The notes: generated by a model from the sequence alone, not told the origin. 31,466 nucleotides of DNA from a virus (IMGVR_UViG_2645727604_000022); one strand, 5' to 3'; positions 8,335-25,755 are shown, numbered from the stretch's first letter. A program made the numbers and translations.

Positions 8335-8353
8335 AGTTTTCTCCTTCTATTCT

Positions 8354-9845: not shown

Positions 9846-10318
9846 TTACTACCAATCATCACATAGCACTCTGTGTAATGCCTTTCTATGTGTGTGCCAT
9901 AATCCCCTATATTCCCTGTGTAAATCATAGAATATCCCTAACTTATTCCTGTGTAATTCCATACTAAAAATTCAATGAAAAGTAGCTTAAAAGTGCAATT
10001 CTTACTTTCTTCACTTTTACATCACTTTCGCAAAGCCTTGTGTAGTGCGGCTTACAGAGCACCATCAGAAATTGTTGGCTAAAAATTGTTCTGCTTGTTT
10101 CTGAATGAGTTTTCTCGTTTGTGCAAATTTTAAAATTTATTTTGTTTTTACAGCCTTATTTCGTGTAATGCGTGGCATAGCAAGCCCTTTTCTTGTGTTG
10201 TCAAGACATTTGGCAACGTTCAAACATCTGTTTAGAAATGCCAAATTGTTGATCTAACAAATAAACCTGTATAAACAGAACACTATTTAATCTATTCCCC
10301 TGTGTATCCATTAGGCAT

Positions 10319-10426
10319 ACCAAATGAATACATCTAAATCGTGTAATATTCCGTACCTATAAGGCTTGAAACAGACCAAATGAATACGATATACTCATTT
10401 GCATTGGAGTAGTGCCAAATCGATAC
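10319..10426. promoter_or_regulatory. res-like recombination / autoregulatory site upstream of the serine recombinase gene
   Basis: Three direct copies of ACCAAATGAATAC-like 13-mer (10319, 10375, 10414); the middle one forms a 25-bp palindrome CAAATGAATACGATATACTCATTTG. Confidence 0.45.
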
Positions 10427-10440
10427 ATTAAGGGGATTTT

Positions 10441-10980
10441 ATGAGCAATATCGGTTATAAGCGTGTGAGCACTGTAGATCAGAACACTGATCGCCAGCTT
10501 GCAGGAGTAACGCTTGATAAAGTCTTTGAAGATAAGCTGTCAGGTAAAGACACTAACCGTCCAGGATTGCAGGCGTGTTTATCCTATCTGAGAGAAGGCG
10601 ACACCTTACACGTGCACTCTCTCGACCGTTTAGGGCGTAACACCTTAGACATTCTTGCCTTAGTGGAACAACTTAATAATCGAGGTGTAATTGTTCGATT
10701 TCATAAAGAAGGGATCATTGCAGACATTACAAGCGCGATGGGAAAAATGATGCTTACGATGTTGTCGGCAGTTGCAACGTGTGAACGTGAACTGATGTTA
10801 GAGCGTAAACGAGAAGCGCAAGCCGTCAATCCTACAAAGCGTGGTAATGGAAAAGCAGTAGATAGAGAAGGTATAAAGAAAGCCCTTTCTGATGGCCTGT
10901 CAGTGCGTAAAACCGCCGAGAGCTTTAATGTTGCTCCTTCAACGGTACAGCGAATTAAGAAGGAAGAAGAGGAGGCGTAA
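10441..10980 (+). CDS. Small serine recombinase (resolvase/invertase family), 179 aa
   Basis: N-terminus MSNIGYKRVSTVDQNTDRQ with catalytic-Ser context, FEDKLSGKDTNRPGL and GDTLHVHSLDRLGRN match the Hin/resolvase family pattern; SD AAGGGGA upstream. Confidence 0.9.
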   Translation: MSNIGYKRVSTVDQNTDRQLAGVTLDKVFEDKLSGKDTNRPGLQACLSYLREGDTLHVHSLDRLGRNTLDILALVEQLNNRGVIVRFHKEGIIADITSAMGKMMLTMLSAVATCERELMLERKREAQAVNPTKRGNGKAVDREGIKKALSDGLSVRKTAESFNVAPSTVQRIKKEEEEA

Positions 10981-10996
10981 TGCCTCCTTGATATTT
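10970..10996 (+). terminator. Putative intrinsic terminator overlapping the recombinase stop codon
   Basis: Hairpin AGGAGGC-GTAAT-GCCTCCT followed by a T-rich tract. Confidence 0.45.
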
Positions 10997-11421
10997 GGGG
11001 ATTCTGGATTTTCCAGATCGGGGGGCGCTGAAAATCGCGTTAAGCACCTCTCGCAATCTAGCCATAAGGGAGGGGATTCATATGTATTTAGATGTATTTA
11101 TAGCTATTTATGGCTATTTATGGCTATTTATTTTTTATTTATCTTTATTTAAAAATAACCTTATAAATCAATAAGATACAGAACTATCTGTTTATATTTT
11201 AATCAATTAAATCAAGTTTAATACCCTTAAATACCCTAAAAATAGCCTTAAATACCCCAATAATTAATTTTAAGGCTTTCCGTGTTCTCTTCTGCATTAT
11301 GAAAATGCAAAATAAGGCACAAAACAAGCTCACAGACGCATTAAACACACATCACCTATACACCCCTATACCAAGCAATGAAAACAGCGTTAGAATGCGT
11401 CCTGTTGCGTTCTGGAGATTT

Positions 11422-11580
11422 TCAGAAATCCTCTCTAAGCCATTTCAACTCACTAAGGAGTTTTCTTTCTTCGTTCTCTCTCTGTTTACGCTCTAACCAG
11501 GCTTTTCCTTCTGGCGTAGACAGGAACTTACGAGCGTGAATCTTGCGGTTATTACGTTTTATAGCTGCAATGTTTTTCAT
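11422..11580 (-). CDS. Possible small basic protein (52 aa); not in the ORF track
   Basis: Hand translation MKNIAAIKRNNRKIHARKFLSTPEGKAWLERKQRENEERKLLSELKWLREDF; AGAGG 6 nt before the ATG. Confidence 0.25.
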   Translation of the reverse strand: MKNIAAIKRNNRKIHARKFLSTPEGKAWLERKQRENEERKLLSELKWLREDF

Positions 11581-12183
11581 CGTGTGCCTCTGTATTCATA
11601 TGAAAATTAACAAGTTACATACTACACAGGGAGACTACGCATAAAACACAATACAAGTAAAGATACATTTTCAAGACAATAGGAGCCATAAAGCGCCTTT
11701 GATGGTTATACCAAAAAATAAGCGCCGTAGGCGTATCCACTAAAAAGGGCTTTTTCACAAAAGCTATGAAGTCTTAGCAGTTCTTCTCTTATCAGGCACC
11801 CGTTGTACTCCGGTGGACGAAACCGTGCTAGAGCTTGATTCTTTCCCGATCAAGTTAGGTTTTGAAGAGGTGGGCTTTAATCCACTATTGCACTTAAAAC
11901 TCTTCCCATCATTTAGCCTGTTTATCCTCTGCAACGTCTCACGACGTGTGGCATCATTGGACACCGCGCCAGGTGTGGAACATCTTGCTAAGAGTTTTGG
12001 TAGAAGGTTTAGAGACGGTGGCACGTCTTCCAGCTTCAAAGGAACTTGTTACGAGGTTGAGCCTGGGAACTACTCGCCCATACGTGTTACACTACCAAAG
12101 CCCATAACAACGTATAGGCGTTTGTAAGTGATAACAGAAGATACAATTTCTTAGAGAAGTTAAGCTAAGTTATTGATTTTCTT

Positions 12184-12202
12184 AATGGTGCCGATAATAG
12201 GA
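12184..12202. repeat. attL: 19-bp copy of the tRNA-Thr 3' end
   Basis: Identical to 30021-30039. Confidence 0.6.
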
Positions 12203-12263
12203 ACAATACACATAGGCGATAAGCTTTGTTTTTGTTGCCTTTTTTATTGTTCATTTTTTATAG

Positions 12264-12288
12264 ATACCCCCAAAAGTACCCCCATATC
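12264..12288. repeat. Tandem TACCCCCA half-site motif ATACCCCCAAAAGTACCCCCATATC, left-end copy (candidate integrase arm-type site)
   Basis: Near-identical copy (21 of 22 positions) at 29889-29913 in the same orientation. Confidence 0.4.
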
Positions 12289-12313
12289 TTTTTCCGCCCC
12301 TGAAATTTGGTTG

Positions 12314-12725
12314 TTATTCATACAGCATATCAGGCGGTAACGCTCTCCCTTTAACCCACTTATTGTATGATAGTGCTATCCCACAATAAGGAATCAGCCA
12401 GCCATGAGAATGACCAGCCGCAAAAAAGAGATACTTAGCTACTTTGAACCGGATAACCTCGAATGGGTGACTGGTGAGATTGGTGCGCCGCCCATAGTGG
12501 CGTGATTGCCGCGTTACCCATGCTTTCATCCTCACCCCATACGCGATACTCGCTACCTGGATCACCTTTACGCCCTTTCTCGAACATATACAGGTGTTCG
12601 TCATTCCAGCCAAAAGCTAACTGGATCACGGCATGAAGTTTACTAAAGGGGATTTGCTCTGGAACCAGCACACGCCGCCATATAGGTGGTTTGCTGTCTC
12701 GGATGGTTATCTTTAGCTGGTACAT
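12314..12725 (-). pseudogene. Frameshifted gene resembling the pRiA4b ORF-3-like family
   Basis: N-terminal frame MYQLKITIRDSKPPIWRRVLVP...AFGWNDEHLYMF continues in a second overlapping frame carrying YLFFAAGHSHGWLI; family assignment is from memory. Confidence 0.45.
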
Positions 12726-12845
12726 GCAAATCCTGAATAAATGCGAATCGGAAGGATAACGATACTGACGTACTCACAATTCTGTAAAGGTGAATAAAGG
12801 AAATTTGCTTAATACGCATAAGTTACATGTGGAATAATCCCATAT

Positions 12846-13031
12846 CTACCTGCGCGGCGCTGGCTTCTTCCACTGGTAGGCAGGTGCTCGCATCATTTCG
12901 CGGAACCTGTCGCGCCGGGCTATATCGGCATTAACTGATCGTTCTATCTCCCGTTGATCTGCCTGTGTAAGCTGATGGCCTCCGTGCTCAAGTTTGGCGA
13001 TGGTCAATAAGGCTATTTCGCGTGGTGTCAT
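12846..13031 (-). CDS. Hypothetical small protein (61 aa)
   Basis: ORF with SD AGAGGG 8 nt upstream. Confidence 0.35.
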   Translation of the reverse strand: MTPREIALLTIAKLEHGGHQLTQADQREIERSVNADIARRDRFREMMRAPAYQWKKPAPRR

Positions 13032-13328
13032 ACGTCATACCCTCTGGAAGAATGAAACACGCCCGGATTAAATTTCATTTTTCGCGGGTATAAAAAAACG
13101 ATGGGGCGGGCAGTCCCGGATAGTCAGGGCTGTAGAGATTTGACTACCCCCTCCCCACTGGATTCAGGTTACTGCTATTCCGTTAAGCGCTGCTTACGGG
13201 GATAGCTGCGTTGTGATTTTGACCATTCAGGTCGCCGCTATTTCCTCACCGATTGGGTGCTACGCGCGCGCGTACTTGTCCCGAAATACCAGAAACCGCC
13301 AGCCAGAGGATGATTTCCCTCTGGTGGT

Positions 13329-13610
13329 CTACCTTTGCCTCTTGCCGCCATTTAACCGGAAGGCGTTACCGTTCGGTTGCGCTATCCCCATGCGGTGTTG
13401 CGTTTCGGTAACAGCTTTATGCAGGTCGCCAAATTCCTCAACCTTCACGGGCGGGCGCTTCACGTTCTCCAGACACGTTTCACGGCGGCGCTTTATCCAT
13501 TCCCGATCATCGTCCTCGGTGCATAACAGCATGACTTCCATCCATCGTGCGGCAGCTCTCCGGTATAGCCCTTTTGACTCCAGCTCTTCAGCTTTCCTGT
13601 CCCTTATCAT
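13329..13610 (-). CDS. PerC-family-like small transcriptional regulator (93 aa)
   Basis: N-terminus MIRDRKAEELESKGLYRRAAARW resembles the PerC/Pch family as recalled; SD GAGAGG 7 nt upstream. Confidence 0.5.
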   Translation of the reverse strand: MIRDRKAEELESKGLYRRAAARWMEVMLLCTEDDDREWIKRRRETCLENVKRPPVKVEEFGDLHKAVTETQHRMGIAQPNGNAFRLNGGKRQR

Positions 13611-13640
13611 TTCTGCCTCTCAGATTATATAGATAAGCAA

Positions 13641-13770
13641 AAAGGTGTTGGTTCAGTTGGTTCAGTTGGTTCAATTTGTAAAGATTGTTGTTTTTATTGT
13701 GTTTTTTCTGAAATATTGAACCAACATCAACTCATTTTGAACCAACACAGCCCAGCTCTGAACCAACAAC
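13641..13770. repeat. Iteron cluster IR-L: three tight GTTGGTTCA repeats then three spaced TGAACCAAC repeats
   Basis: Reverse complement matches cluster 20679-20799, including a 43-bp perfect terminal match. Confidence 0.65.
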
Positions 13771-13869
13771 ACAGCGATAGATTTGTGATTGGTCCGTTAT
13801 TTTCTGGCTGATATTTGAGCGTATAACAGTGTTATACAGTGGTATACTGTATGGATATTACTCACTGAT

Positions 13870-14325
13870 ATGGTCTTTGCAATGAGCAAATCTAATCTGG
13901 TCGCGTTCCGCATCCCATCTGAATTGCAGGATGAGTTTAATCGGTCTGTTCTCGCTTCTGGAGGAGATAAAACCTCCTGGCTTGTTGATGCGATTCGCAT
14001 GAAGCTGGGGCAGCCGGAAAAGTCTATTGATTCACGAATGCTTGGGCTGGTGGAGCGCATGGAAAAAGCCGCTGCGTCGCTTATTGCCGGAAAGCCGAAC
14101 ATCCCACCAAAACCATATAACGAAACGGCAGTTATAAAGATCATTGCCGATACCATCCAACAGGGATTTGATAATGGGCGTGTGATAGCTGAACGGATCA
14201 ATGAAGCAGGCTATCAAACAAAAGCTGGTAAAGCGTGGGATAAAGATATTTACAGCGCGTGGAAGCGTCAGGGAAGCAATGCTGAAAAGCTAAAAGCAGT
14301 GATTGATTGTAAGGTCAGCGTATAA
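13870..14325 (+). CDS. Mnt/Arc-like ribbon-helix-helix domain protein with C-terminal extension (151 aa)
   Basis: RHH-like N-terminus SNLVAFRIPSELQDEFNRSVLASGGDKTSWLVDAIRMKLG; no clear SD. Confidence 0.55.
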   Translation: MVFAMSKSNLVAFRIPSELQDEFNRSVLASGGDKTSWLVDAIRMKLGQPEKSIDSRMLGLVERMEKAAASLIAGKPNIPPKPYNETAVIKIIADTIQQGFDNGRVIAERINEAGYQTKAGKAWDKDIYSAWKRQGSNAEKLKAVIDCKVSV

Positions 14326-14404
14326 ACATGAGTGCCCATTGGAAAGTTGCTTGGGCCAATACCTTTATACACCAGCAGGTAGTGACGATAGGTGAGGATC
14401 AGAT

Positions 14405-14626
14405 ATGAAAGGCAGAACGCCACACATTGAACATCAAGCCAACCACTTCCCTGATGTTCGCAATGAGATGATTGCCATTCGCGGTGATATGCACGGATTG
14501 GAGCGTCGAATTATTGATAAGATTGATGAAAATAGAGATAAGGCCAGTGAAAATCAAAAGTGGATCATCGGCCTGTTGATTTTATCAATTCTTATCCCGC
14601 TACTTATCGCATTGGTCACAAAATGA
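14405..14626 (+). CDS. Small protein with C-terminal transmembrane anchor (73 aa)
   Basis: SD GAGGA 9 nt upstream; C-terminus KWIIGLLILSILIPLLIALVTK. Confidence 0.5.
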   Translation: MKGRTPHIEHQANHFPDVRNEMIAIRGDMHGLERRIIDKIDENRDKASENQKWIIGLLILSILIPLLIALVTK

Positions 14627-15146
14627 ATATCCAATGTGTATGCTGTCGATGCTACGCGCGCGTACTTGTCGCAAAATATCAGGCAAAGGCCAGATTCAGA
14701 AAGTCGTGATAATCACCAGCACAACATGAGATGTCATGTAACGCGATTGATCACACCAGATACATGTGATGGTGTACCCGCATAAAACATCGTCATAGCG
14801 CGTCCTGTGCGCACATACGCCGATAATCAACACATCACCACCACTCTGTCTCGTGTAGAGAACAGTTTCATGGTATCCCCCGCCATCGTGTGCGTACTGG
14901 TCGGACGTGGTTGCAAAATTTTTGCAACTGATACCCCTCGCGCGCGTACTGGTCACGAAATTGGTGTTTTGCTGTGGCAGTGATATCAGAAAAATCTTCC
15001 TGTTTCACATAAAGCGGATATGCGCGTACTGTAACGACCCCATCAACGGGATCGGATTTGAAATCCTGACCCAAGCTATGTACCAAATGCCATGTCTTGG
15101 ATATATGATGATTGCCATTCTAAACAAAGCTAAAGGGAGGGTTGGT

Positions 15147-15503
15147 GTGAGGGGGCAGGCAGTTATAATTATTTTGTTGGGTTTAATTGTCGCAAAGTTA
15201 TACCCGACTTTATCGATGGTGTTTTTTGCCATTATTGGCGCAGCCATCTTTACTTATATCATTAAACATACCGCCTTGTGGTTCTATAAAATTGATATAG
15301 TTCAGAAGTTTGTACGTCCTGTGTCGATGTTATTACTAGCATTAATACCAATTGGTGTTGCTTATGTAATTGATGTTTTTTACCCTTCGGACACTGAAAG
15401 GTGGTTGATAGTTTTGTATTGTTATATTGGTGTAGCTCTCTTTTGTGGATTTCATTGGTGTTTCGAAAAGATCAATGACTCTATTTCAAAGAATAAAGAT
15501 TGA
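15147..15503 (+). CDS. AT-rich small integral membrane protein with four predicted TM helices; candidate immunity / superinfection-exclusion protein (ORF track frame opens at 14907; start here assigned to GTG 15147)
   Basis: SD GGAGGG 6 nt before GTG; four hydrophobic helices; about 37% GC on sampled lines versus about 63% in the adjacent 705-aa gene. Confidence 0.6.
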   Translation: MRGQAVIIILLGLIVAKLYPTLSMVFFAIIGAAIFTYIIKHTALWFYKIDIVQKFVRPVSMLLLALIPIGVAYVIDVFYPSDTERWLIVLYCYIGVALFCGFHWCFEKINDSISKNKD

Positions 15504-15517
15504 GGCCATCCGTGGCC
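15504..15517. terminator. Short hairpin between the convergent membrane-protein and 705-aa genes
   Basis: GGCCA-TCCG-TGGCC hairpin; weak flanking U-runs. Confidence 0.3.
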
Positions 15518-15522
15518 ATTCA

Positions 15523-17640
15523 CTAGTCATTATCTGGATCATTAGATAGCCAAGTAATGATGCCCAGTCTGGCGATGGTCCGTTTTTCCTGTTCAGGAAG
15601 AGAGTTAAAAAAACTCTTCCATTGAGGGGAGCGCCTGATACGTGAATCAACAATGTGCCCAGGCGCTTTTCCGTGTAGATTTTTTACTGCGCTCTGGAAG
15701 GCTGGCGAGGCAATTAATTTATCCGCAGCATCAGCCGCCCCTGCTCCACCAGCTAATCGAGCTTTACTCGCCAATCTTGCTCCAATATCAGCCCCAGCAA
15801 TGGCTCCAAGCGATCCAAAATGAGCGCCTACCATCGTGCCTATTTTTTGAATGTGTTTTGCTGCTAGTTCGTATGGAGCTGTTACCCGATTAAATCTGTT
15901 TACAAACTCATTCAGCTTACCAGTAGATATTTCATGCGCTTTAGCATTTTTTATTGCTCTGGCAACTTTGTATACATCATATAGTCCGCTCATTGTTTCT
16001 TTTGGCAAATGTTCAGCCAAAGTCTTTAGCTGTCCACTGTGTTGCAAGTTTTGCCACCAATCTGCAAAGCCAGATGGATTAAAGTCGGCCCCACGCTTCC
16101 CAGAGGAAAGCATATCTCTTAATGCTGTTCCTACTAGCTCCCTTCGCAATGTTCTTGATGGAGTATTTTGCATAATCTCACGAAACCCTCTCGCATCACC
16201 TTTTGCCATAGATTGAAGAGAATTCGTTACTTTATACGCTATATCCCCATTAAGTGTTTTCCCGCGAAGATTTACCATTTGCCTTTCTAAGTTTTTTCTC
16301 ATAGCTACAAGGCGTTGTGCGACTTCGAAATCTCGCAAGTATCCAGTATTGGATAAGACAGATTTTTGGTCTTCAGCTAAAGCTCCATATAGTCTTGATA
16401 GCGCTTCTTTATCAGCATCTTTGTATGGCCCCTGCTTTTTATTTAGGGCATCACCAACTAAACGCCTTTGCCTGTTTAAATTTGCATACGTTAGGATTCT
16501 ATCTGGGCCGGGGTTTATTGCTGTAAAAACTCGCTTTTCTATTGGGTCAAGATTATCCCACCCTCCTAAATCATCAGCGATTTTTTCCAGCATAGTGCTT
16601 GTGTTATTTGCTTCGACTTTTGTTCTTGGTGATAGAGCGGAATCAACACGTTTATATAACTGATCACTACGGTTTTTTAGTGCTTCCATTCTACTATTTA
16701 TCTGATAAATATATTTTTCGCTCATAGCTAACGCATCTGGCGCACCAGCAACATCATCGATTATCTTGCCAGCACTAGAGGCTAATTCGCTTATTGCTTT
16801 ATCTTCTTGAGCTTTTAACGCTGATCCTGTCCGTGACTTTAGGGCTTGCTCTACAGCTTGGTATTGCTCATTTCCTGATAAATGAGAAGGAAGAACTGAA
16901 TCAACATGAAGCCTATTTGCAGCCTCAACAATTTCTTTCTGAGGTTTTAGATCTAGCCCTTCAAGCGAAGAGGCAAGATTTGGGTTGCCTTGTGCAGATA
17001 ACTTACGAATTTTCTCTTCGGCAGGAGTAATCCCCTCAATATCTGGAATCGAAGAAACATTCTTCTTGGTTAATTTCCCAGCTATTTTATTAATTGCAGG
17101 GCCAGCAAGTTCGGCTACAGGGCCAGCCACAGCGCCAATAGCAGCGCCGGAAGCAACATCGCTATTTGTTCCATTGGCTACAATAGCCCCTTCTCCAGCA
17201 CCAAGCCCTGCGGCGGCAGCCAGTCTTGCCGCCCCTTTGGGAACCTGAGAAATAATCCCACCACCACTAACAAATGGCGCTGCTTGTCCAACGAACTCAC
17301 CAACATCTTGTGCGGTTGATGGTTTTGCCGCTAACTTCTGCTGTAGAGACTGAATTGCGGCTTGCTCTTCTGGTGTCATATCCTGAAACAGGCCAACACC
17401 TTTACCAACATCCATCAATCCACTGAGAACGCCATACATAAAACGGTCGAAACCGTTAGCATTATTAACAACATTTTCCTGTCTGGAATTTTCCTCTGGT
17501 GAAACCAAAGGTGATTGCTGCTGTTCTGGTTGGGCATCAAGCACAAAACCATCAGGAAGCTGTGAACTATCAGGAAACTGTGAGTTATCAGGTTGTTCAT
17601 CGAGCACAAAACCTTCCGGTAAGATTACATTTGCTGCCAT
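15523..17640 (-). CDS. Hypothetical large Gly/Ala-rich coiled-coil protein (705 aa), last gene of the LexA-box operon
   Basis: N-terminal repeats PEGFVLDEQP / PDGFVLDAQP, long Gly/Ala zipper segments, no P-loop or nuclease motif found. Confidence 0.75.
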   Translation of the reverse strand: MAANVILPEGFVLDEQPDNSQFPDSSQLPDGFVLDAQPEQQQSPLVSPEENSRQENVVNNANGFDRFMYGVLSGLMDVGKGVGLFQDMTPEEQAAIQSLQQKLAAKPSTAQDVGEFVGQAAPFVSGGGIISQVPKGAARLAAAAGLGAGEGAIVANGTNSDVASGAAIGAVAGPVAELAGPAINKIAGKLTKKNVSSIPDIEGITPAEEKIRKLSAQGNPNLASSLEGLDLKPQKEIVEAANRLHVDSVLPSHLSGNEQYQAVEQALKSRTGSALKAQEDKAISELASSAGKIIDDVAGAPDALAMSEKYIYQINSRMEALKNRSDQLYKRVDSALSPRTKVEANNTSTMLEKIADDLGGWDNLDPIEKRVFTAINPGPDRILTYANLNRQRRLVGDALNKKQGPYKDADKEALSRLYGALAEDQKSVLSNTGYLRDFEVAQRLVAMRKNLERQMVNLRGKTLNGDIAYKVTNSLQSMAKGDARGFREIMQNTPSRTLRRELVGTALRDMLSSGKRGADFNPSGFADWWQNLQHSGQLKTLAEHLPKETMSGLYDVYKVARAIKNAKAHEISTGKLNEFVNRFNRVTAPYELAAKHIQKIGTMVGAHFGSLGAIAGADIGARLASKARLAGGAGAADAADKLIASPAFQSAVKNLHGKAPGHIVDSRIRRSPQWKSFFNSLPEQEKRTIARLGIITWLSNDPDND

Positions 17641-18923
17641 TTTCCGTTCCTGTAAATGATTTTCTGACCAGTTTTAGGGTTGGTTGCCGTTGCGCCTTCT
17701 GATATTCCTCCGGTTGCCGCTTTTGCCTGTCCAGTGCCAGCCTGTGATGTAGGCTGCCCGGAAACATCGTCAAATAGCTTCGCTTTCCTTCTTTCAAGGC
17801 TTTTTCTTAGCCCCTGAGGAATAGTTTCTCCATATGTATCGAGATACTCGTCAACCTGCTGGTTAAACTGCTGCCCCATAGCATTGGCGTTGATTTTTGC
17901 GGCGTTAACAATGTTATCCTTTGCCTCCTGCGACAGGCCGTTTCCAGCATTAAGCTGGTCTATGTATCCTTTGATTTGTCCCCATATGCCATCAGACCGC
18001 ATTACCTGAACCTGTTCGCCTTCACGAACGACTGACTGCGGGTCAAGAGATTTCATGTAGTTGAAGATAATCCCAAGTTGGGCAGCGCCAGTATTTACCT
18101 TGCTAAGGGCTTGCAGAGAGTTTGCCGCCGCTCTGACAGAGTTATAATTTTTGCCAAAATTGGTAATGTCAGAATTTAATCCCTTAATTAAGTCTGCTGA
18201 CGGCTTACCTTTTTGCCCCAGCTCCATTAGCTTCAATCCCATCTCATCTGAGTGAATTTGTGCTCGCTGAGCCCTGTCTAGTTGAGCGTTCTGGATATTT
18301 GCCCATCCTCTCGCGTTCTCCATGTCAGCCTGACGCATACTTTCATCCAGTCGCCCTTGCTCAAGTCGACGACCTTCCATTTGATCTTTGATATCGAAAT
18401 ACTTCTCATGACCGAGAGAAAACAGTGCCATACTACCAGCAAGCCGCTGGAACCCCTGTGGATCATTAACATGCATTTCGGCAACAGACTCAGGAGAAAT
18501 TCCCAAGCGACGCATTTCATCTTCGTTATCTGCTATGAATTTTCCAAATGCCCCAGTTCCGAGCGAAGATGCGATTTGAGCACTAGTCGCAAGATGACCA
18601 ATAGAATTTCTCTGGTCGTCATCAATAAAGCCCATCCCTTTCTGAACGCTTTCAAATTCTTCTGGATACTCAGAAATAAGACTGCGCATTTTGTTTCTGT
18701 CTCCAGACTCAAAAGCCCCGGCATATGCTTTCTGAAACTCTGCTTTACGCTGTTGTTGACGTGCCTGCTGATTAATCTCAGCAACGCCTCTTAGCCCCTG
18801 TAGCGCCATTAAACCTACGTTTGGCTGCTGCTGATACTGCACAGGCTGAGGAACGGAAGAACGAGGAGCATTATCATTTTGCGGTGCCATGCTAGGCAGC
18901 CCGCCAAGTTGCCATGTCGCCAT
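17625..18923 (-). CDS. Hypothetical coiled-coil protein (432 aa)
   Basis: Q-rich N-terminus; overlaps neighbouring genes by a few nt (translational coupling). Confidence 0.75.
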   Translation of the reverse strand: MATWQLGGLPSMAPQNDNAPRSSVPQPVQYQQQPNVGLMALQGLRGVAEINQQARQQQRKAEFQKAYAGAFESGDRNKMRSLISEYPEEFESVQKGMGFIDDDQRNSIGHLATSAQIASSLGTGAFGKFIADNEDEMRRLGISPESVAEMHVNDPQGFQRLAGSMALFSLGHEKYFDIKDQMEGRRLEQGRLDESMRQADMENARGWANIQNAQLDRAQRAQIHSDEMGLKLMELGQKGKPSADLIKGLNSDITNFGKNYNSVRAAANSLQALSKVNTGAAQLGIIFNYMKSLDPQSVVREGEQVQVMRSDGIWGQIKGYIDQLNAGNGLSQEAKDNIVNAAKINANAMGQQFNQQVDEYLDTYGETIPQGLRKSLERRKAKLFDDVSGQPTSQAGTGQAKAATGGISEGATATNPKTGQKIIYRNGKWQQM

Positions 18924-19600
18924 TAGAATCCAAGCCCCCCAACAAGACCAATAAGCCCACCACCAATAGCGCCGGCCGCAGTTCCTATTCCAGGAACAAC
19001 GGAACCAAGTTGCGCACCCGCTAAAGCGCCTGATGCTGCCCCACCAATACCACGCGCAAGACTGGATGGCTGCTGCGCCTGACCTGCACGAATAGCGCCA
19101 AGCCCCTGCAAGAGTTGTCCGGTATTATTGGCGTAGTTTTGCCCTGCCGTTGCCTGCCCTGATGCCGCATTCATCCCGACATTTAGCAGGTTTCCATAAT
19201 TTTGCATTTGCCCACTAAGCCAATTGTTATAAAGCATGGGCGCAATGGAAGATAACTGGTTACTGGTAGCTGTTGAGCCAAGCCCCCCGGTAGCTTCTGC
19301 TGAGACAAGGTTCTGATAACGGGCCTGATCTGCCTGTGTTTTATATAAACCAGAACCAAAGAAATCATTCGCGGCTTTATTCTGCCCTTCCAGAGTCATC
19401 AGTCCTTGTAGTTGTTGTAAAGCAGGCAATCCGACTTCTGCATACGGCTTGAGATTATTCATCACCGTATTCCACTGCTCGCGCTGCAAATCAATTGCCT
19501 GCTGCTGGGCCTTCGCCTGAGCTTTAGAGGCACCACCATCACCGCCTTTTTCGTATACGGCACGATTGAGATGTTTATGAGCTATATGGGTAATTAACAT
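18923..19600 (-). CDS. Hypothetical protein with extremely Gly-rich hydrophobic C-terminus (225 aa)
   Basis: C-terminus GIGGAASGALAGAQLGSVVPGIGTAAGAIGGGLIGLVGGLGF. Confidence 0.7.
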   Translation of the reverse strand: MLITHIAHKHLNRAVYEKGGDGGASKAQAKAQQQAIDLQREQWNTVMNNLKPYAEVGLPALQQLQGLMTLEGQNKAANDFFGSGLYKTQADQARYQNLVSAEATGGLGSTATSNQLSSIAPMLYNNWLSGQMQNYGNLLNVGMNAASGQATAGQNYANNTGQLLQGLGAIRAGQAQQPSSLARGIGGAASGALAGAQLGSVVPGIGTAAGAIGGGLIGLVGGLGF

Positions 19601-20055
19601 TCGCTGAATTCCTTATATTGTTGCCGAGTTAACTGATAAAGCGTTACGCCGACGGGTTTACCACATCTGATATAAGCATCATCAAGGTGACCAACACGGG
19701 TAGCGCCAAGCAAACGGATAATTGCCCGTCCGTATTTCGTGGTGTCAGGAACCATAGTGATGCTGTTAAGGAATGGTGAGTTTTCGAGAAGCCATTTGCA
19801 GAATAATCGATGTCCTTGCAGTGCATATTCACCACGGAATCCGGGGTCGTACACCGCATGGCATTCAACAACGCTATGCCAGAAGTTACGCACTTCATGA
19901 ACGCCAGCCAGCACTAATCCTTCGTAGATGCCGAGATATACCGCATCAGGCTTGATGTAGTACGTGTGCCCCGGCTCAACAATATTTTCGGTATTGCCTG
20001 GCTCGTTAAGAAAGGCCTGTAATCGCACAGGGTTATCAATAAATTTTAGTTCCAT
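19594..20055 (-). CDS. Hypothetical protein (153 aa)
   Basis: ORF coupled to downstream genes; no diagnostic motif (GNAT motif looked for and not found). Confidence 0.7.
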   Translation of the reverse strand: MELKFIDNPVRLQAFLNEPGNTENIVEPGHTYYIKPDAVYLGIYEGLVLAGVHEVRNFWHSVVECHAVYDPGFRGEYALQGHRLFCKWLLENSPFLNSITMVPDTTKYGRAIIRLLGATRVGHLDDAYIRCGKPVGVTLYQLTRQQYKEFSEC

Positions 20056-20071
20056 GCGATGCCATCCATTT

Positions 20072-20233
20072 TCACATACAGCCTGCCAGCGCCTTATCTA
20101 TTAACCCTCGTGCAATTTCATGCAGAGTTGGCGCTACTCCAATTCCTGATTTTTTACGCTGCTCTTCCTGAATTTTCTTTATCGCTTCCATTTGCTTCTC
20201 ACTTATCAATACCGGCTTTACTGAAATAGCCAT
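20072..20233 (-). CDS. Small RHH-like putative regulator (53 aa), first gene of the operon; not in the ORF track
   Basis: Hand translation MAISVKPVLISEKQMEAIKKIQEEQRKKSGIGVAPTLHEIARGLIDKALAGCM; GGGGG 5 nt before ATG. Confidence 0.45.
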   Translation of the reverse strand: MAISVKPVLISEKQMEAIKKIQEEQRKKSGIGVAPTLHEIARGLIDKALAGCM

Positions 20234-20248
20234 AACGCCCCCTTAGAA

Positions 20249-20264
20249 CTGTATAAAACAACAG
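20249..20264. promoter_or_regulatory. LexA-type SOS box CTGTATAAAACAACAG, immediately downstream of a perfect TATAAT (20267-20272, minus strand)
   Basis: Matches CTGT-N8-ACAG with an AT-rich spacer; sits 16-31 bp upstream of the RHH start codon; only such box found in the window. Confidence 0.45.
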
Positions 20265-20678
20265 TTATTATAGTTTCACAAATCGCAATATTCATCATCG
20301 TAATTGCAAAATATGAAACAAATAGCACAAAAAAATGCCACCGCTCAGTAGCTGGTGGCATCGTTCTGTGTGTCAGGTTTTGACAGGTTTTTTATGGACT
20401 CTAAAAACTATATTTATGGTGTCGCATTACTCTTCACGGCAGGCGCTTTTCAGTTCTGCCCTTGCTTCTGGCTCCATTGGTAATTTGATTCGCGATCAGC
20501 TATGCGGATGGTTTGCTGAACAGGCATAACAACTTCTCAGAGGCTGTTTTCTGAACTACGAAAATTTCGTAGTGCTCACTTTCAAAAACGTCACGCCCTT
20601 GTACACAGGATTTTACGAAAGTCTCGTAAAACACTCTCTGATGCCAGCCAGGTGTTGTGCGCATCAATTCAGTCACAT

Positions 20679-20799
20679 TGTGTTGGTTCAAAATACCGTG
20701 TTGTTGGTTCAGTGTTGGTTCAATAAAAAGAATAAAATCCTTATAAAACAATACTCTTTACAAATTGAACCAACTGAACCAACTGAACCAACACCTTTT
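20679..20799. repeat. Iteron cluster IR-R: inverted partner of 13641-13770, 19 bp downstream of the primase-helicase stop
   Basis: Three spaced GTTGGTTCA then TGAACCAACTGAACCAACTGAACCAAC. Confidence 0.65.
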
Positions 20800-20817
20800 C
20801 TACGCACATGAAGAAGC

Positions 20818-23577
20818 TCATTCTTCAGATGAGTTATAATCTCCTGGCTGGTAATTGAGTACATAAACGTTTATTTGTCGTCCCTGAATACGTGGTGATT
20901 TTCTTTGGTATCCACGACCGCTGTTTGGTGGGGTTAGCATCCCGGCTTTTTTCAACACTTCAGCAAACTGTTTTGCGTTGAAACCACATGCGATCTCCTT
21001 TTCAAATGTGGCCGGGAATGTGTAGAAAATCATTGGGCTTTCGTCATGTTCTCCACGCTGACGGTATCCGGCTAAATCTTTGATGGGCAAATCTGCCGGG
21101 CTGTATGGAAATGGTGCAAAACGGCTAAGCCCATAGGCATTAAGAAATGCCTCCGTTTGTTCAATAATCTGCTGATGCTCTTTGTTACCTGTGCCGAACT
21201 CGCGCAACCATGCGTTATAGCTGTGCTGTATCGCATCACGGCATGTCTGAGCATCCCAGCCTGTTACAACCTCGCCTAACAACAATGCGGCCTCCAGAAT
21301 GGCAAATCGCGCGGCTACACGGTGAACCTGCTCACCATAATCGGATGGGATCAGGCTTCTCCATCTGCTTTCGCAGTCACGAACGGTTTTAATAGCCTGT
21401 TGCTGGTGGTCTGCCAGCCATTTAATCCACTCACGCCCGGACGCGCCGTGGTGATGCTGGTAAGCGTCTTTCAGTGCGTCTGCGTGCTGTTTTCCGTTCT
21501 GGTAATCGTGAAAGCGTACTGCTTTACTCAACGGAATATTCAGCAGTCGCACCAGTTGCCCGGCTTTGGTTTTTCGCCCGGAAGTAGCGATAAATGTTTC
21601 TAAATCCATTTCTCCGGTGCTGATTGCCACTGTACGCCAGCGTTTTAGATCCCGGTTTCCACCATCTTTAGCGCCTTGCAGTTTCCCTACACCGTTAAAT
21701 AACGCATAGGCAGACTGTGAGACGCTGACAGGATCAGCGCCCTGACCAACTTCATCAAGCGGCATTAGTCCGTCATTGTGGGCGGCGGCCTCATTTGCCA
21801 GCCCCAGCGCGGTTCCGTACCACGTCAGCCGCAGTAAATCAGGGTTGCCGTATAAGCTGCTCGCCACGTTTGCCGTGGTGGTCTTACCTGCGCTCGACTG
21901 CTCATAGAAATGAATGCCGAACCCGTCAGCGCCCACCAGCCCAATCAATGGCGCTGCCAGTGCTGCGCCGATCCCGGTCATCATTGAATAGTTACCAAAG
22001 GACAGACGCGCCACGTTATCACGCCAGCTTTTCTCGCTCCCTGAGACGGTATATCCGGCTGCGGCTGAGCTTCTCCCGCTGAACAGCACAGGATTTTCAG
22101 GTGTTCCGATGATTTCCCCATCAGGCATGATGTACGCTCCGCATTGCCAGCCAGTGGCATGAGCAACACGCCACAATTCACGAGAGCCACTGCGTTGTAG
22201 CCAGTCTGCCAGTATTGCTCTGAGGCTGCTTTTGGTCGTGACATTTACCCCACCAGCTTTAAGTGTGCGCCATCCTTCACGTTCACCAATATCAGCCAGT
22301 GGAATGGCAGCGGTTGTCGGCGTTTCAGAACCAAACGACAGCCAGCGAAGAATGAGATACTGGTCTTTATCGTCTCTGCCAGTACCGATAACGCTTAACG
22401 GAGAACATAACCAGCTTTCGTTATTGATGATTTCTCCACTCTGGCTGTCAGCTCTCGGAGATACCCAATAAATACCATCCTCGCGGCTTTCTATTCTTGG
22501 TTTCAGTGGATCGGTATCCATAACCTTAAAATCGCTTCCCTCAATGGTCTGTGGCTCCTGTTTCACGCCATTACCCTGTGGTTGGTACATTGACTTATTG
22601 AACGCTTCTGTGGCGCATTTAATGCCGTGTTTTTGGTGGTAATCATTCCAGTCTGCTTTGTGATCTGTCGGGGGTAATGCCACCCATCCAGAAACAGATA
22701 AAGCTGCTTTTTCTGCTGCTATTCTCCCCGTGTTTTGTCTTCCTTCGCTGTGGTCGTTATCCGCAGCAATGATGATTTGTGCTGAAGGAAATTTATCCCG
22801 CAGTACCTGGGCGACATATAACAGGTTCCCGGCATCAATCGCCGCCACTGTCAGCGCCTCTGGACGCATTAAATGGGCAGATAATGCCGTTGCCAGCCCT
22901 TCTGCGATTAAGATGCTCTGTGTTGTTTCTGGTGCGTTTATGGCGTGATATGCCCCTCGCTTTGCTGAACCTGTCAGGAGTCTTTTTTCACCATGTGAGG
23001 TAATAGTCTGTGCTGCTGTTACTGCGCCGGATTTATCCACCAGCGCCAGCAACAGAGATCCATCGGGCAACACGGGGAATGTAAAATCACCTACCCCTTT
23101 CGCAACCAGATAATCAGATTTGCCGTTTACAGCCTTTCTGCGCATGTCATCAAACTGACGGGAAAACGTATCCCGTCTTTGTTGTTCGTCCTTCTCTGCC
23201 CTTTTCAGGCGCTCCTGTTCGCGTCGCTGGCGCTCGGTTTCCAGTTGTTCCCGTTTCTGGCTGGTGGCTTCTGGTGTTTCCGTTGTCCGGTAATCAATAC
23301 CCAGAACATCAGCGGCAAGAAGCGCCGCCTCTGTTGTGTCGCAGTTATTTACGCGTTTAATTAAATCCAGCCCATCACCAGCGCCGCACTGATTACAGAT
23401 GAAGCTACCGCGCCCGTTGTCATCGAACCGGAATCGATCTTTGCCCCCACATGCAGGGCAGGGAGCATGACGGCGCGGAGAGTCAGGGACATTTATGTTC
23501 AGGCAGCCCAGCACATGAGGCCAGTTGTTTTCAGACGCACTGATAACCTGACGGATAAGATCAATGTTTCGCATCAC
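20818..23577 (-). CDS. P4 alpha-like primase-helicase (919 aa)
   Basis: N-terminal zinc-ribbon CPACGG...CNQCG, P-loop YEQSSAGKTTT; size and context typical of satellite/island replication proteins. Confidence 0.85.
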   Translation of the reverse strand: MMRNIDLIRQVISASENNWPHVLGCLNINVPDSPRRHAPCPACGGKDRFRFDDNGRGSFICNQCGAGDGLDLIKRVNNCDTTEAALLAADVLGIDYRTTETPEATSQKREQLETERQRREQERLKRAEKDEQQRRDTFSRQFDDMRRKAVNGKSDYLVAKGVGDFTFPVLPDGSLLLALVDKSGAVTAAQTITSHGEKRLLTGSAKRGAYHAINAPETTQSILIAEGLATALSAHLMRPEALTVAAIDAGNLLYVAQVLRDKFPSAQIIIAADNDHSEGRQNTGRIAAEKAALSVSGWVALPPTDHKADWNDYHQKHGIKCATEAFNKSMYQPQGNGVKQEPQTIEGSDFKVMDTDPLKPRIESREDGIYWVSPRADSQSGEIINNESWLCSPLSVIGTGRDDKDQYLILRWLSFGSETPTTAAIPLADIGEREGWRTLKAGGVNVTTKSSLRAILADWLQRSGSRELWRVAHATGWQCGAYIMPDGEIIGTPENPVLFSGRSSAAAGYTVSGSEKSWRDNVARLSFGNYSMMTGIGAALAAPLIGLVGADGFGIHFYEQSSAGKTTTANVASSLYGNPDLLRLTWYGTALGLANEAAAHNDGLMPLDEVGQGADPVSVSQSAYALFNGVGKLQGAKDGGNRDLKRWRTVAISTGEMDLETFIATSGRKTKAGQLVRLLNIPLSKAVRFHDYQNGKQHADALKDAYQHHHGASGREWIKWLADHQQQAIKTVRDCESRWRSLIPSDYGEQVHRVAARFAILEAALLLGEVVTGWDAQTCRDAIQHSYNAWLREFGTGNKEHQQIIEQTEAFLNAYGLSRFAPFPYSPADLPIKDLAGYRQRGEHDESPMIFYTFPATFEKEIACGFNAKQFAEVLKKAGMLTPPNSGRGYQRKSPRIQGRQINVYVLNYQPGDYNSSEE

Positions 23578-23932
23578 CGTACCCCACGTGGTCTATAGCG
23601 TTTGCGATATGGCTAACTAGCATCTGCCACTTGGTTATTCCGTAATCAGTCAGCATGCCATCATTGTTTAGCCACATATCAAATTCAGCGGTTGTCGCAA
23701 GTTTCCACTTATCGCCGTGGACAGTCCTCATTGCTGGGTACATGAATGCGCAAATCAGATCACAAACATCTGACGGCTTCAGAGATGTAGTAATGGTGCG
23801 TCCCTCTGGCGTCTGAATTGCCATTTTCTCTTCACCAGTAGAATGAAGGTTATGAATCCACACAGCACCAGCAATCTTTGCCACCTGCTCTCCGATTGCG
23901 GAGCTAAGCGCCATTTCTACATTTTCACGCAT
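23561..23932 (-). CDS. Hypothetical protein (123 aa)
   Basis: ORF overlapping the primase start (coupled). Confidence 0.55.
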   Translation of the reverse strand: MRENVEMALSSAIGEQVAKIAGAVWIHNLHSTGEEKMAIQTPEGRTITTSLKPSDVCDLICAFMYPAMRTVHGDKWKLATTAEFDMWLNNDGMLTDYGITKWQMLVSHIANAIDHVGYGDAKH

Positions 23933-24266
23933 GAGAACCTCCCGCTACAGTTGCGCCCATGTCATTAACCATGCTTTGCCATATCTCACGCCCGACGTCA
24001 GTCAATCTGTCCTTAGTGACGCAACGATCAAGAAGCTCGATCCCCACGGTTTCCCACTGCGGGTAGAACACTTTCATGGCTGCCAGTGCGTAACTATCGA
24101 TCAGGCTGCGAACGCCTTTTACTCCATTGACGATTTCCACACGGACGGCCTCTCCGTCCGCATCAATCATGAAATAGTCCCCGCCGCTGGTGGAGGTAAT
24201 GTGGTTATACAGTGCTGACGCATACTTATTTGCCAGCGCATTCAGTCGGAAATTTTTAGTAATCAT
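23925..24266 (-). CDS. Hypothetical protein (113 aa)
   Basis: ORF in the coupled gene chain. Confidence 0.55.
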   Translation of the reverse strand: MITKNFRLNALANKYASALYNHITSTSGGDYFMIDADGEAVRVEIVNGVKGVRSLIDSYALAAMKVFYPQWETVGIELLDRCVTKDRLTDVGREIWQSMVNDMGATVAGGSHA

Positions 24267-24276
24267 GGCTCCATCC

Positions 24277-24879
24277 TCAGTGCGTCACTGGTTCCGCTGG
24301 CATGCCGTTTTCATTCAGTTCAGCTATAAAGCTGTTGTGAAGTTCAGCAAGCGTTTCACGACCAAATGGAGTCAGTGCTCCTTGTTCCACATCCATCATG
24401 GCTCTGTAGAAAATGATGGCGCGTTCTGTGCCAGACTCGATGCCAAAACGTTCTATCATCGCGCCCTCAATGTTGTTTGCCATAGCGAGGCGCTCTGCTA
24501 CTGGATACAGCGGCATGGCGACGATGCCGTTGGAATAAACAGCCACTTCGGAAGGATTGCCAGTATCATCAATGATGCTGACAGTGCCGTTTTCCTTTCT
24601 CATTTCATTGATGAATGCTGTTGCTATCAGCCAGCGCCACATAATCACGTGATGCTGTGATGTGTAATCGAAATATCCCTGGTTGCCGCCACTGGCAATA
24701 GCGAGATGTATAAACATGCCTTCATCTGGTTTATCGTCATAATCCCCGGCATCCAGACGATTTACGGCATCAATATATGAGACGGTCTCAACGCGTTCTG
24801 TCATGCCATCGTTGCTGCGGTACATGATGTTTACGCCGTCAGGCGTTGCTTCTGCATGGAAAGTTAAGAAATTATTCAT
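24277..24879 (-). CDS. Hypothetical protein (about 200 aa; start assigned to internal ATG 24879 rather than ORF-track 24984)
   Basis: GAGG 6 nt before ATG 24879; 8-nt overlap with the upstream gene. Confidence 0.5.
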   Translation of the reverse strand: MNNFLTFHAEATPDGVNIMYRSNDGMTERVETVSYIDAVNRLDAGDYDDKPDEGMFIHLAIASGGNQGYFDYTSQHHVIMWRWLIATAFINEMRKENGTVSIIDDTGNPSEVAVYSNGIVAMPLYPVAERLAMANNIEGAMIERFGIESGTERAIIFYRAMMDVEQGALTPFGRETLAELHNSFIAELNENGMPAEPVTH

Positions 24880-25093
24880 GTTTCGCCTCGCCTGAATGAT
24901 TCTGTAACTCATATTTGCCCAACAATTCGTCTGCTTCCTGAATAGCTTCTGGTACGCCATTGAGCAGTGACATAACCGCGCCAATCATTAACTTGTCTCT
25001 GTTGCTGGGGCTGGCCCCTTCAAGCCAGAACCCTAAAACAGTCTGAACCTGTTCGATGCGACATTGCGCTTCAATGAGCTGGATGTTGGTCAT
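24872..25093 (-). CDS. Hypothetical small protein (73 aa)
   Basis: ORF in the coupled gene chain. Confidence 0.45.
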   Translation of the reverse strand: MTNIQLIEAQCRIEQVQTVLGFWLEGASPSNRDKLMIGAVMSLLNGVPEAIQEADELLGKYELQNHSGEAKHE

Positions 25094-25353
25094 TTCGCAC
25101 TCTCCACATCGATTAAACCGATATCTATCAGGGAGGTAACTTTTTGTAGCCAGCTATTGATTACTGTCGCCTGTTCCCCTCCCACCGAGGGAACAATCTC
25201 ATTCATCACATGAACCAGACCTGTGCGCGCTCTGGTAAGCCGTTCAGTCGCGCAATCTGCGGGAGTGAATGTGTCTGGATATGGCTCTTCGCGCCCCAGC
25301 AATGATTCAATTTCCAGCTCACACGGATGACGATAAATTAAGTTGATATTCAT
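25090..25353 (-). CDS. Hypothetical small protein (87 aa)
   Basis: ORF in the coupled gene chain. Confidence 0.45.
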   Translation of the reverse strand: MNINLIYRHPCELEIESLLGREEPYPDTFTPADCATERLTRARTGLVHVMNEIVPSVGGEQATVINSWLQKVTSLIDIGLIDVESAK

Positions 25354-25544
25354 TTTTCACCCCCAAGAATTACCAGCTCGGCACGGGCATCGTTAACCAA
25401 AGATGAGCACGCTTTAATCGCATCCACGACATCAGCAGCGTCCATTTCTTCAGCCGAAAGACTGACAGCAACCAGGACAGCCGCTGCTTGCTCGATTAAT
25501 TGAAGTGCGGACGTAAGGCGAGGGGTATTAATTGAGTTATTCAT
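25350..25544 (-). CDS. Hypothetical small protein (64 aa from ATG 25544)
   Basis: GGGGG 6 nt before ATG; 8-nt overlap with the upstream gene. Confidence 0.45.
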   Translation of the reverse strand: MNNSINTPRLTSALQLIEQAAAVLVAVSLSAEEMDAADVVDAIKACSSLVNDARAELVILGGEK

Positions 25545-25755
25545 TGGTTGCCCCCGTTTTGCATGGCATTTGTCCACCTTCCAGCAGGAAATGAACGTCA
25601 CGAACGGCGAGATCCAATATCGCGAGTAACGCCTTCAGTCTTTCGTCTCGTGAGGGAGAGTTGCTCACCAGAATGTCGTTAATCACTTCTGTCAGTGTGA
25701 TGATCTGGCTTGTGCGTTCGAGGGGATCCATATGCACATCGTAGGTTTTAATCAT
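25537..25755 (-). CDS. Hypothetical small protein (72 aa)
   Basis: SD GGAGG 6 nt before ATG 25755; lies in the C-terminal frame of the 342-aa track ORF. Confidence 0.45.
   Translation of the reverse strand: MIKTYDVHMDPLERTSQIITLTEVINDILVSNSPSRDERLKALLAILDLAVRDVHFLLEGGQMPCKTGATNE

Follow-up and report, generated by a model that had tools for sequence, protein, structure and literature searches.

An EcCIMP1-family phage satellite carries P22-type ejection proteins behind a predicted LexA-type promoter

Of what use could phage DNA-ejection proteins be to an element that encodes no head in which to load them? This question is raised by a five-gene operon and a convergent membrane protein gene at positions 15147-20272 of the viral sequence IMGVR_UViG_2645727604_000022, a stretch of 31,466 nucleotides which was analysed at its full length and is called here the window. 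In P22-like podoviruses, the ejection proteins are loaded into procapsids, are expelled at infection and build a conduit across the cell envelope. The original prediction made for this locus had left the choice between a captured ejection-protein module under DNA-damage control and an undescribed toxin, bacteriocin/immunity or defence system. The present analysis places the operon in a phage satellite of Escherichia coli and suggests that it is probably the operon by which the satellite exploits its helper, since it would supply helper capsids with satellite-specified delivery proteins at a time set by the SOS response.

The operon is read from the minus strand and is composed of five open reading frames (ORFs) of 53 aa (20233-20072), 153 aa (20055-19594), 225 aa (19600-18923), 432 aa (18923-17625) and 705 aa (17640-15523), with the sizes and positions originally assigned to them. 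The first junction is a gap of 16 nt and the next three are overlaps of 7, 1 and 16 nt. The 153-aa product (19594-20055, minus strand) is matched by Pfam DUF2824 (PF11039, 1.5e-61) from residue 3 to residue 150 and by phrog_651 ('head morphogenesis'), which identifies it as a head-morphogenesis protein of the gp14 type; it is 84% identical to Kapi1_055 of the P22-like phage Kapi1. The 225-aa product (18923-19600, minus strand) is of the gp7 ejection-protein type (Pfam P22_gp7, PF25688, 6.6e-73) and shares 58% identity with Kapi1 gp7. It contains 16% Gly, 15% Ala and 11% Gln, and the richness in these residues behind the earlier description of Gly-rich coiled-coil proteins is thus real. The 432-aa product (17625-18923, minus strand) is a gp20-type ejection protein (Pfam Inj_translocase, PF16928, 6e-48; phrog_917, 1e-101). 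It is 68% identical to Kapi1 gp20, the first 200 aa being divergent and the last 230 aa about 100% identical.

The 705-aa ejection protein (15523-17640, minus strand) stands at the position of P22 gene 16. It is matched over its full length by phrog_6704 (1e-174) and also by phrog_770, a 'DNA transfer protein' family (1.7e-50). The Pfam family Phage_P22_gp16 gave no match with it, and its identity to P22 gp16 is merely 21%. Closer relatives are the gene-16-position proteins of Kapi1 (Kapi1_058) and E212, with 41-44% identity over the full length, the counterpart in Sf101 (63% over 500 aa) and the protein of the P22-like phage fragment L023 (61.7%). In the comparison with Kapi1, the first 160 aa are about 100% identical and the identity then falls to 15-48%. 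Across the cassette, the PHROG families matched are 651, 598, 917, 770 and 6704. These matches establish true homology of the four large proteins to P22 gp14, gp7, gp20 and the gene-16-position ejection protein, and the likeness in size and order to gp14-gp7-gp20-gp16 remarked on in the original prediction extends to all four families. Full-length homology to the ejection proteins of intact phages, which had been named in advance as a point against that prediction, was found; it settles the identity of the proteins but is no reason to regard the locus as nothing more than the remnant of a prophage. In none of the six proteins of the locus was a colicin, lysis or nuclease domain detected by Pfam, or any match by PADLOC, and the proposal of an undescribed toxin, bacteriocin/immunity or defence system was abandoned on these grounds.

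The surroundings of the operon are those of a satellite. The attachment (att) core TCCTATTATC, the same as that reported for the E. coli island EcCIMP1, occurs exactly twice in the window (0.06 copies expected): the distal copy (12193-12202, minus strand) marks the left end, and the proximal copy (30030-30039) is included in the integration target, a tRNA-Thr (CGT) gene (30023-30098, minus strand). Together they bound an island of 17.8 kb (12203-30029). Along its minus strand follow a 404-aa tyrosine integrase (28643-29857; an ORF annotated as integrase in the related islands L001 and L002), an AlpA-type helix-turn-helix (HTH) regulator gene (28011-28214), AntA, Ash, several small ORFs and a 919-aa primase-replicase with Zn-ribbon, Toprim and DUF927 regions (20818-23577; Pfam, phrog_1139). 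The AlpA-type gene was assigned by its position and because the identical gene is annotated as HTH in L001 and L002; its equivalent in L007 matches Pfam Phage_AlpA. Immediately downstream of the primase gene, iterons GTTGGTTCA and TGAACCAAC, three in each orientation (20680-20794), probably form the replication origin of the island. They are followed by a terminator-like hairpin (20352-20337), by the operon with its promoter, by the convergent membrane gene and by a PerC-family regulator gene (13329-13610, minus strand; Pfam PerC, 3.7e-30). Apart from the ejection module, no virion structural or lysis gene was found within 12203-30029. The earlier statement that no capsid, portal, terminase or tail gene accompanies the operon is therefore right for the island itself; a separate element to its left (1-12192) does have capsid-E-like and Dit-like genes. 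Since a primase, origin iterons, an AlpA-type gene, an integrase and att repeats surround it, the module belongs to a phage satellite, and the gene content identifies the locus as a phage-inducible chromosomal island (PICI) of the EcCIMP1 family and not as a prophage. The same island is present in E. coli A20 with 98.9% identity.

Upstream of the operon, the minus strand reads GAAAC-TATAAT-AA-CTGTTGTTTTATACAG-ttctaaGGGGGcgtt-ATG, with TATAAT at 20272-20267, CTGTTGTTTTATACAG at 20264-20249 and the ATG at 20233. The -10 hexamer (20267-20272, minus strand) is invariant in the islands of E. coli, Serratia and Citrobacter. The palindrome is the core CTGT-N8-ACAG (20249-20264) of a LexA-type SOS box, AACTGTATAAAACAACAGTT (20247-20266). 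Hexamer and palindrome were thus correctly located by the original prediction, which was also right about the perfect -10 followed by the box; the gap between them is 2 nt and not 3, so that the box lies over the promoter/start region. CTGT-N8-ACAG occurs once in the 31.5-kb window, with 0.32 copies expected. The box was scored with a LexA matrix of 20 positions, derived from 26 SOS boxes of E. coli; the scores are approximate. It obtained 19.2 bits, which equals the median of the 26 real sites, and its heterology index is approximately 4.7. No other site in the window is matched better by the matrix, and 0.5% of shuffled windows reach its score. The chromosomal dinD box was recovered in two fetched loci, which is a sanity check only as dinD belongs to the training set. 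The operon promoter was not called by a consensus promoter scan because its -35 region is poor.

The promoter was compared in relatives from other genera and from IMG/VR, using the 53-aa protein as unbiased anchor. GAAAC-TATAAT-NN-CTGT-N8-ACAG is kept with differing spacers in Serratia (CTGTGTCTATATACAG), in the Citrobacter type (CTGTATCGTTATACAG), in L068 and L070 (CTGTATAAAATAACAG) and in L071 (CTGGGTAAATAAACAG), with scores of 14-21 bits. A fixed CTGT/ACAG at fixed spacing around a free spacer is the pattern predicted for a LexA operator. No box of at least 13 bits was found with the same matrix in Kapi1, the P22 late region, the metagenomic P22-like phage L020 or L023, indicating that the LexA-type box is a feature of the satellite. 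From this good and conserved operator we infer that the operon is under LexA, hence DNA-damage, control. The idea of a captured ejection-protein module under apparent DNA-damage control is in agreement with both the family matches and this box; the satellite context had escaped the original prediction.

Other putative control elements surround the box. A 17-bp motif, ATTGCRNNNNRTGAAAC, has only two perfect matches in the window, and these form an inverted pair (20273-20289, minus strand; 20303-20319, plus strand) which covers the -35 region and abuts the -10. The pair is conserved in Serratia and Citrobacter-type islands and is likely an operator for an island regulator. Further upstream, a hairpin with a T-run resembling an intrinsic terminator (20337-20352, minus strand), conserved in the E. 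coli islands, insulates the ejection operon from the primase operon. A second, weaker LexA-like box (28620-28639; 14.2-14.7 bits) directly follows the integrase stop. It is found at the same position in A20, AR202.2 and Serratia, where it reaches 22.7 bits (coordinates elsewhere: L001, 32367; L004, 1493; L007, 686-705). It is absent from EcCIMP1, the single island whose alpA was shown to be unresponsive to mitomycin C when no helper is present.

The 53-aa protein (20072-20233, minus strand) is a conserved leader protein and a possible regulator. Its gene heads the operon that follows the primase in all the related islands, whatever the cargo, and its dN/dS ratio is about 0.05 against Citrobacter- or Serratia-type copies, with synonymous sites saturated. 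No family match was obtained in Pfam, PHROG or NCBIfam, and tblastn against 50,697 phage records found nothing. In the AlphaFold2 model of the monomer (pLDDT 76), residues 1-11 are extended and residues 12-29 and 37-52 are helical. This order of secondary structure is the only feature compatible with the Mnt-like ribbon-helix-helix (RHH) protein announced originally. The RHH identity is not supported: no BLAST alignment to Arc was obtained, hhalign gave a probability of 0.2% against an Arc/Mnt profile, a sequence-profile search of the PDB was negative and Foldseek returned nothing below E = 1 in PDB and BFVD. Pfam was likewise negative.

The fate of the operon was followed in complete genomes. 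Of 5426 complete E. coli genomes, 504 (about 9%) have the promoter and the 53-aa gene. Approximately half of these loci have the four-gene cassette; the remaining ones have a two-gene version, made of the gp20-type and gene-16-type genes, followed by a convergent small envelope gene. The gp20 and gp16 types are kept in every variant of the cassette. Relatives are found in Serratia, in Salmonella and in metagenome contigs in which the leader protein is named from Citrobacter. At every locus inspected the ORFs are intact, and against Citrobacter- or Serratia-type copies the dN/dS ratio is 0.07 for gp14 and 0.07 for gp7, synonymous sites being saturated. The cassette is under purifying selection and is not decaying.

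In some islands, the same primase backbone and leader gene are followed by other cargo in place of the P22-type ejection proteins carried by L025-L039. L070 (6159-9638) has a 1046-aa tape measure protein (Pfam TMP_3, 3e-57) after a 109-aa protein, and L060 (6168-10146) has a 666-aa SLT-domain protein matched end to end by phrog_2276 (tape measure), together with a baseplate-hub-like protein. Large proteins with the PHROG labels head protein, endolysin, internal virion protein and tail injection transglycosylase are encoded in L044 (6487-10898), L046 (6581-11004) and L011; among these, Pfam detects an SLT domain solely in the 898-aa protein of L046. L009 (8198-13729) combines a baseplate-hub-like protein with a small terminase. 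The cargo classes beyond ejection and tape measure proteins are less certain, as they are assigned by PHROG labels. Tape measure proteins, like ejection proteins, are virion components which leave the particle and help DNA to cross the envelope. The family might possibly illustrate a strategy in which satellites carry their own genome-delivery proteins, matched to the morphotype of the helper, and re-equip the virions that they hijack, for instance so as to enter helper lysogens in which helper-type ejection proteins are excluded. In this tentative scheme there would be neither capsid remodelling nor redirection of packaging; a single slot behind the leader gene would be used, gated by LexA in several lineages. 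No description of such a cargo slot was found in the searchable literature; as most subscription journals are missing from it, this negative is weak evidence.

The origin of the cassette can be traced to P22-like phages. A comparison of the window with the complete genome of Kapi1 revealed common DNA in the ejection module only, at 89% identity along 1.27 kb and at 81% along 0.6 kb. In Kapi1, the genes are in the order needle, phrog_651 protein, gp7-like, gp20-like, a 722-aa protein, small convergent envelope genes and Arc/antirepressor, and the gp20 and gp16 genes overlap by 16 nt as they do in the island. L020 likewise has gp4, gp10 and needle genes upstream of its module. The needle gene, which precedes the cassette in the phages, is replaced in the island by the satellite-specific promoter. 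Exchange is illustrated by one pair, the phage L020 and the satellite L021, whose gene-16 proteins are 99.7% identical and whose convergent membrane proteins are 100% identical. These comparisons point to a phage origin of the block formed by gp16 and the membrane gene, and more generally indicate that cassette and membrane gene were taken from Lederbergvirus-type phages and are still recombining with them. A pac site or a terS mimic common to the island and Kapi1 was looked for and not found, the shared DNA being the ejection module alone.

The convergent gene (15147-15503, plus strand) encodes a 118-aa membrane protein with about four hydrophobic segments by hydropathy. It starts with a GTG placed 6 nt after a GGGAGG Shine-Dalgarno sequence, its GC content is 35.0% against 47.2% for the island, and 19 nt separate its end from the stop codon of the 705-aa ORF. 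These data agree with the convergent four-helix gene of lower GC described originally. The protein has no family in Pfam, PHROG or PADLOC, tblastn against the 50,697 phage records found nothing, and NCBIfam gave sub-threshold noise only (for instance the CBO0543 family, 23 bits for a cut-off of 35 bits). The likeness to SieA that had been proposed is one of position and not of sequence: BLASTP against P22 SieA gave no similarity (E = 1.7) and the motif FnRYPnEAnnFNK of SieA types A-C is missing. L023, however, has a co-linear homologue of 118 aa, 47.5% identical over its full length. This homologue is convergent and lies 21 nt after the 61.7% identical gene-16-type protein; five Arc-family genes and an antirepressor come next. 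In L023 the pair occupies the gene 16 / immI position, with gene 20 on one side and the Arc/antirepressor region on the other. A slot convergent after gene 16 is the sieA slot described by Leavitt et al. (PMC10461980), and the position of the L023 homologue makes the membrane protein a positional analogue of SieA rather than a member of its family. Its most likely role is that of an exclusion or moron protein, acquired along with the gene-16 block.

In other islands, unrelated envelope proteins are found behind the same short leader and Shine-Dalgarno sequence. In the window, the leader (15108-15146) translates as MIAILNKAKGRVG and includes a strong Shine-Dalgarno sequence; equivalents are present in L003, L004, L020 and L021, that is in islands as well as in phages. 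It behaves as a constant slot for expression, downstream of the gene-16 homologue, in which the cargo can be exchanged.

How could these proteins serve the satellite? In the mechanism that we propose, LexA would hold the membrane-active proteins silent. DNA damage would induce a resident P22-like helper prophage and would also cleave LexA; owing to this co-induction, the satellite ejection proteins and the gp14-type factor would be made while helper procapsids assemble, and would be co-loaded into them. Particles containing satellite DNA would then inject it by means of the satellite-specified gp20 and gene-16 proteins. Co-loading gains plausibility from P22, whose virions accept very different ejection-protein sets in exchange for one another (PMC10461980). 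LexA binding, incorporation into virions and a selective benefit are the inferred steps of this scheme. As to the benefit, entry into cells which exclude helper-type ejection proteins would be a speculative and rather unlikely payoff, considered because resistance to SieA in P22 maps to gp16 and gp20 (PMC10461980).

Several observations weigh against this mechanism. Infection by a helper, unlike prophage induction, need not trigger the SOS response. The poor -35 region may mean that an activator is also needed, and dual control of the promoter by an activator and LexA is plausible. In the large Klebsiella lineage (L039-L067, from IMG/VR), the -10 is followed by an invariant CTGTATAAATATCAG about 26 nt upstream of the leader gene. 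This motif is one base shorter than the LexA box and scores 0-9 bits, and the lineage includes L039, which carries ejection proteins. As CTGTATAAATATCAG is too short, LexA control is not universal in the family; in this lineage it has probably been lost, or CTGTATAAATATCAG serves another factor. A terS gene could not be recognised in the island, nor does its DNA resemble the packaging region of Kapi1. Kapi1 transfers EcCIMP1 very rarely and with unchanged helper titres, and a Kapi1-like prophage is present in merely 2 of 21 strains carrying EcCIMP1 (PMC11773190). Finally, the idea that the procapsid-binding N-termini match the helper while the C-termini diverge was rejected: gp16 fits but gp20 shows the reverse, which amounts to plain mosaicism.

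Two alternatives accept the satellite and give the operon another function or another switch. PICIs commonly interfere with their helpers. The ejection proteins could accordingly poison helper virions by forming mixed and faulty conduits, or block incoming P22-like phages at the membrane. EcCIMP1 provides lysogens with superinfection immunity against Kapi1 (PMC11773190), the operon adjoins a membrane gene of the sie slot, and the gp20 and gp16 of EcCIMP1 share no more than 23% and 19% identity with the corresponding proteins of Kapi1, its proven helper, so that mixed assemblies could be faulty. We nevertheless consider interference or exclusion unlikely. Kapi1 titres are unaffected by EcCIMP1, a LexA-repressed promoter speaks against constitutive exclusion, and the strong purifying selection on the gp14-type factor fits productive assembly better than sabotage. 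Moreover, very different ejection-protein sets replace one another in P22 virions, and heterologous sets function in P22 hybrids (PMC10461980). It could also be that the palindrome is the operator of an island regulator, for example the 53-aa protein or AlpA, and that the operon is switched by the helper and not by DNA damage. The strong conservation of CTGTATAAATATCAG in the Klebsiella lineage despite its non-LexA spacing would suit this explanation, as would the high conservation of the 53-aa protein alongside the promoter; in addition, AlpA, the master switch of PICIs, responds to the helper, and alpA of EcCIMP1 was shown to remain without response to mitomycin C unless the helper is present (PMC11773190). 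Just the LexA-critical CTGT/ACAG and their spacing are kept, however, and the eight spacer bases vary (TGTTTTAT, GTCTATAT, ATCGTTAT, ATAAAATA). The score of the box equals that of real SOS boxes, the 17-bp inverted pair just upstream is a separate and better candidate for such an operator, and several islands have another LexA-like box behind the integrase gene. An island-regulator operator in place of a LexA box is on these grounds doubtful.

The two remaining alternatives deny either the satellite or the virion role. The four proteins and the membrane gene downstream of them are in the order and spacing of the P22 late operon, as would be expected of a decaying P22-like prophage remnant beside a primase island. 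Yet the cassette is situated inside the att-bounded 17.8-kb island, between primase/origin and PerC; its junction with the 53-aa gene and promoter recurs in the 504 E. coli genomes, in Serratia, in Citrobacter and in Salmonella; its ORFs are intact with low dN/dS, and the satellite-specific promoter stands where the needle gene would be. A remnant is thus very improbable. Even less credible is a pore-forming bacteriocin or toxin under SOS induction, paired with a convergent immunity protein. It is true that colicin operons are brought to mind by the position of the LexA-type box, downstream of the -10, and by the small membrane protein encoded convergently, and that the proteins have glycine-rich hydrophobic segments, but the domain and defence-system searches reported above were negative, the homology to ejection proteins is specific throughout, and the homologues of the membrane gene sit in P22-like phages. 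The SOS-timed supply of delivery proteins to helper capsids is therefore retained as the probable function of the operon.

Two side observations concern the neighbourhood and the copies of the island. In the A20 copy (L001, 24300-27055) the primase is frameshifted, whereas that of the window is intact, and an Abi-family gene is a pseudogene; the A20 copy is probably immobile. Positions 1-12192 of the window are a separate 12.2-kb element (38.9% GC) in tandem at the same tRNA-Thr site. It encodes an integrase (1-1335), a Dit-like tail protein (1417-2130), a 608-aa protein of unknown function, an HTH protein, a major-capsid-E-like protein (4294-5322) and a serine resolvase (10441-10980). It stands alone at thrW in other E. 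coli (L018) and could represent a further small element of satellite type that brings a capsid gene of its own.

That satellites appropriate capsids, tails and packaging specificity is known, and an ejection-protein set carried by a satellite adds a further question to this list. If satellite delivery proteins are indeed loaded, satellites could alter how, and into which cells, the hijacked virions inject DNA, which would have an effect on gene flow among E. coli, Salmonella, Klebsiella and Serratia. The island is a further member of the published EcCIMP1 family, in which the gene set had been noticed and its function left unexplained. As far as we could find, the novelty lies in the LexA gate predicted here, in the derivation of the membrane gene from the sie slot and in the delivery-protein cargo seen throughout the family.

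The closest known system is EcCIMP1 itself, the PICI of E. coli MP1 (Pick, Stadel & Raivio, ISME J 2025, PMC11773190). It occupies the same tRNA-Thr site between proA and yagU and shares the att core, integrase, alpA, AntA, Ash, DUF927 primase and PerC. The 53-aa protein, the promoter and the LexA box are identical in the two islands, and gp14 and gp7 are 98-99% identical. They differ from gp20 onwards: the two gp20 are just 31% identical, the last ejection protein has 705 aa here and is of another type in EcCIMP1, with 906 aa and a lytic transglycosylase domain, and the convergent four-helix membrane gene has at its place in EcCIMP1 a 232-aa gene on the same strand. EcCIMP1 is excised solely with the P22-like helper Kapi1 and requires alpA, and its transfer is specific and of low frequency (PMC11773190). 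In the same study EcCIMP1_017-019 were noted as similar to 'DNA transfer' and DUF2824 proteins and a role in packaging was suggested; LexA was not mentioned (PMC11773190).

In P22 and other Lederbergvirus phages, genes 14-7-20-16 belong to the same four families, in the same order and with overlapping junctions, and a convergent gene of inner-membrane type lies 18-22 nt past the last stop, as in the island (22 nt between gene 16 and sieA in P22). The P22 ejection proteins leave the particle and aid the passage of DNA across the envelope (PMC8402733, PMC10461980), and each binds the procapsid at a site of its own (PMC8402733). Unlike P22, the island has no head, portal, terminase, needle or tailspike gene, and the cassette is expressed from its own LexA-box promoter instead of a phage late operon. 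Its ejection proteins are 21-53% identical to those of P22, the closest phages being Kapi1, E212, Sf101 and L023, and its membrane protein, in contrast to the P22 occupant of the slot, is not a SieA homologue. SieA, aimed at gp16/gp20, and gp15 of HK97, aimed at tape measure/PtsG, are blocks encoded by phages. The titles of Cumby et al. (2012, 2015), as cited in PMC11364771, name HK97 gp15 an exclusion protein and link the tape measure protein to genome injection. The island carries instead the class of proteins which such blocks target, next to an unrelated membrane protein of the sie slot.

With respect to regulation, the nearest parallel is operon I of the pathogenicity islands (SaPIs) of Staphylococcus aureus, likewise a satellite operon for the exploitation of helper virions, placed under the host SOS repressor and firing at prophage induction. 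LexA control of this morphogenesis and packaging operon was shown experimentally (Ubeda et al. 2007, as cited in PMC6092414). SaPI operon I encodes capsid-size redirection and terS, whereas the island described here encodes ejection proteins, in a different phylum and with a different LexA motif, under a control which in its case is predicted.

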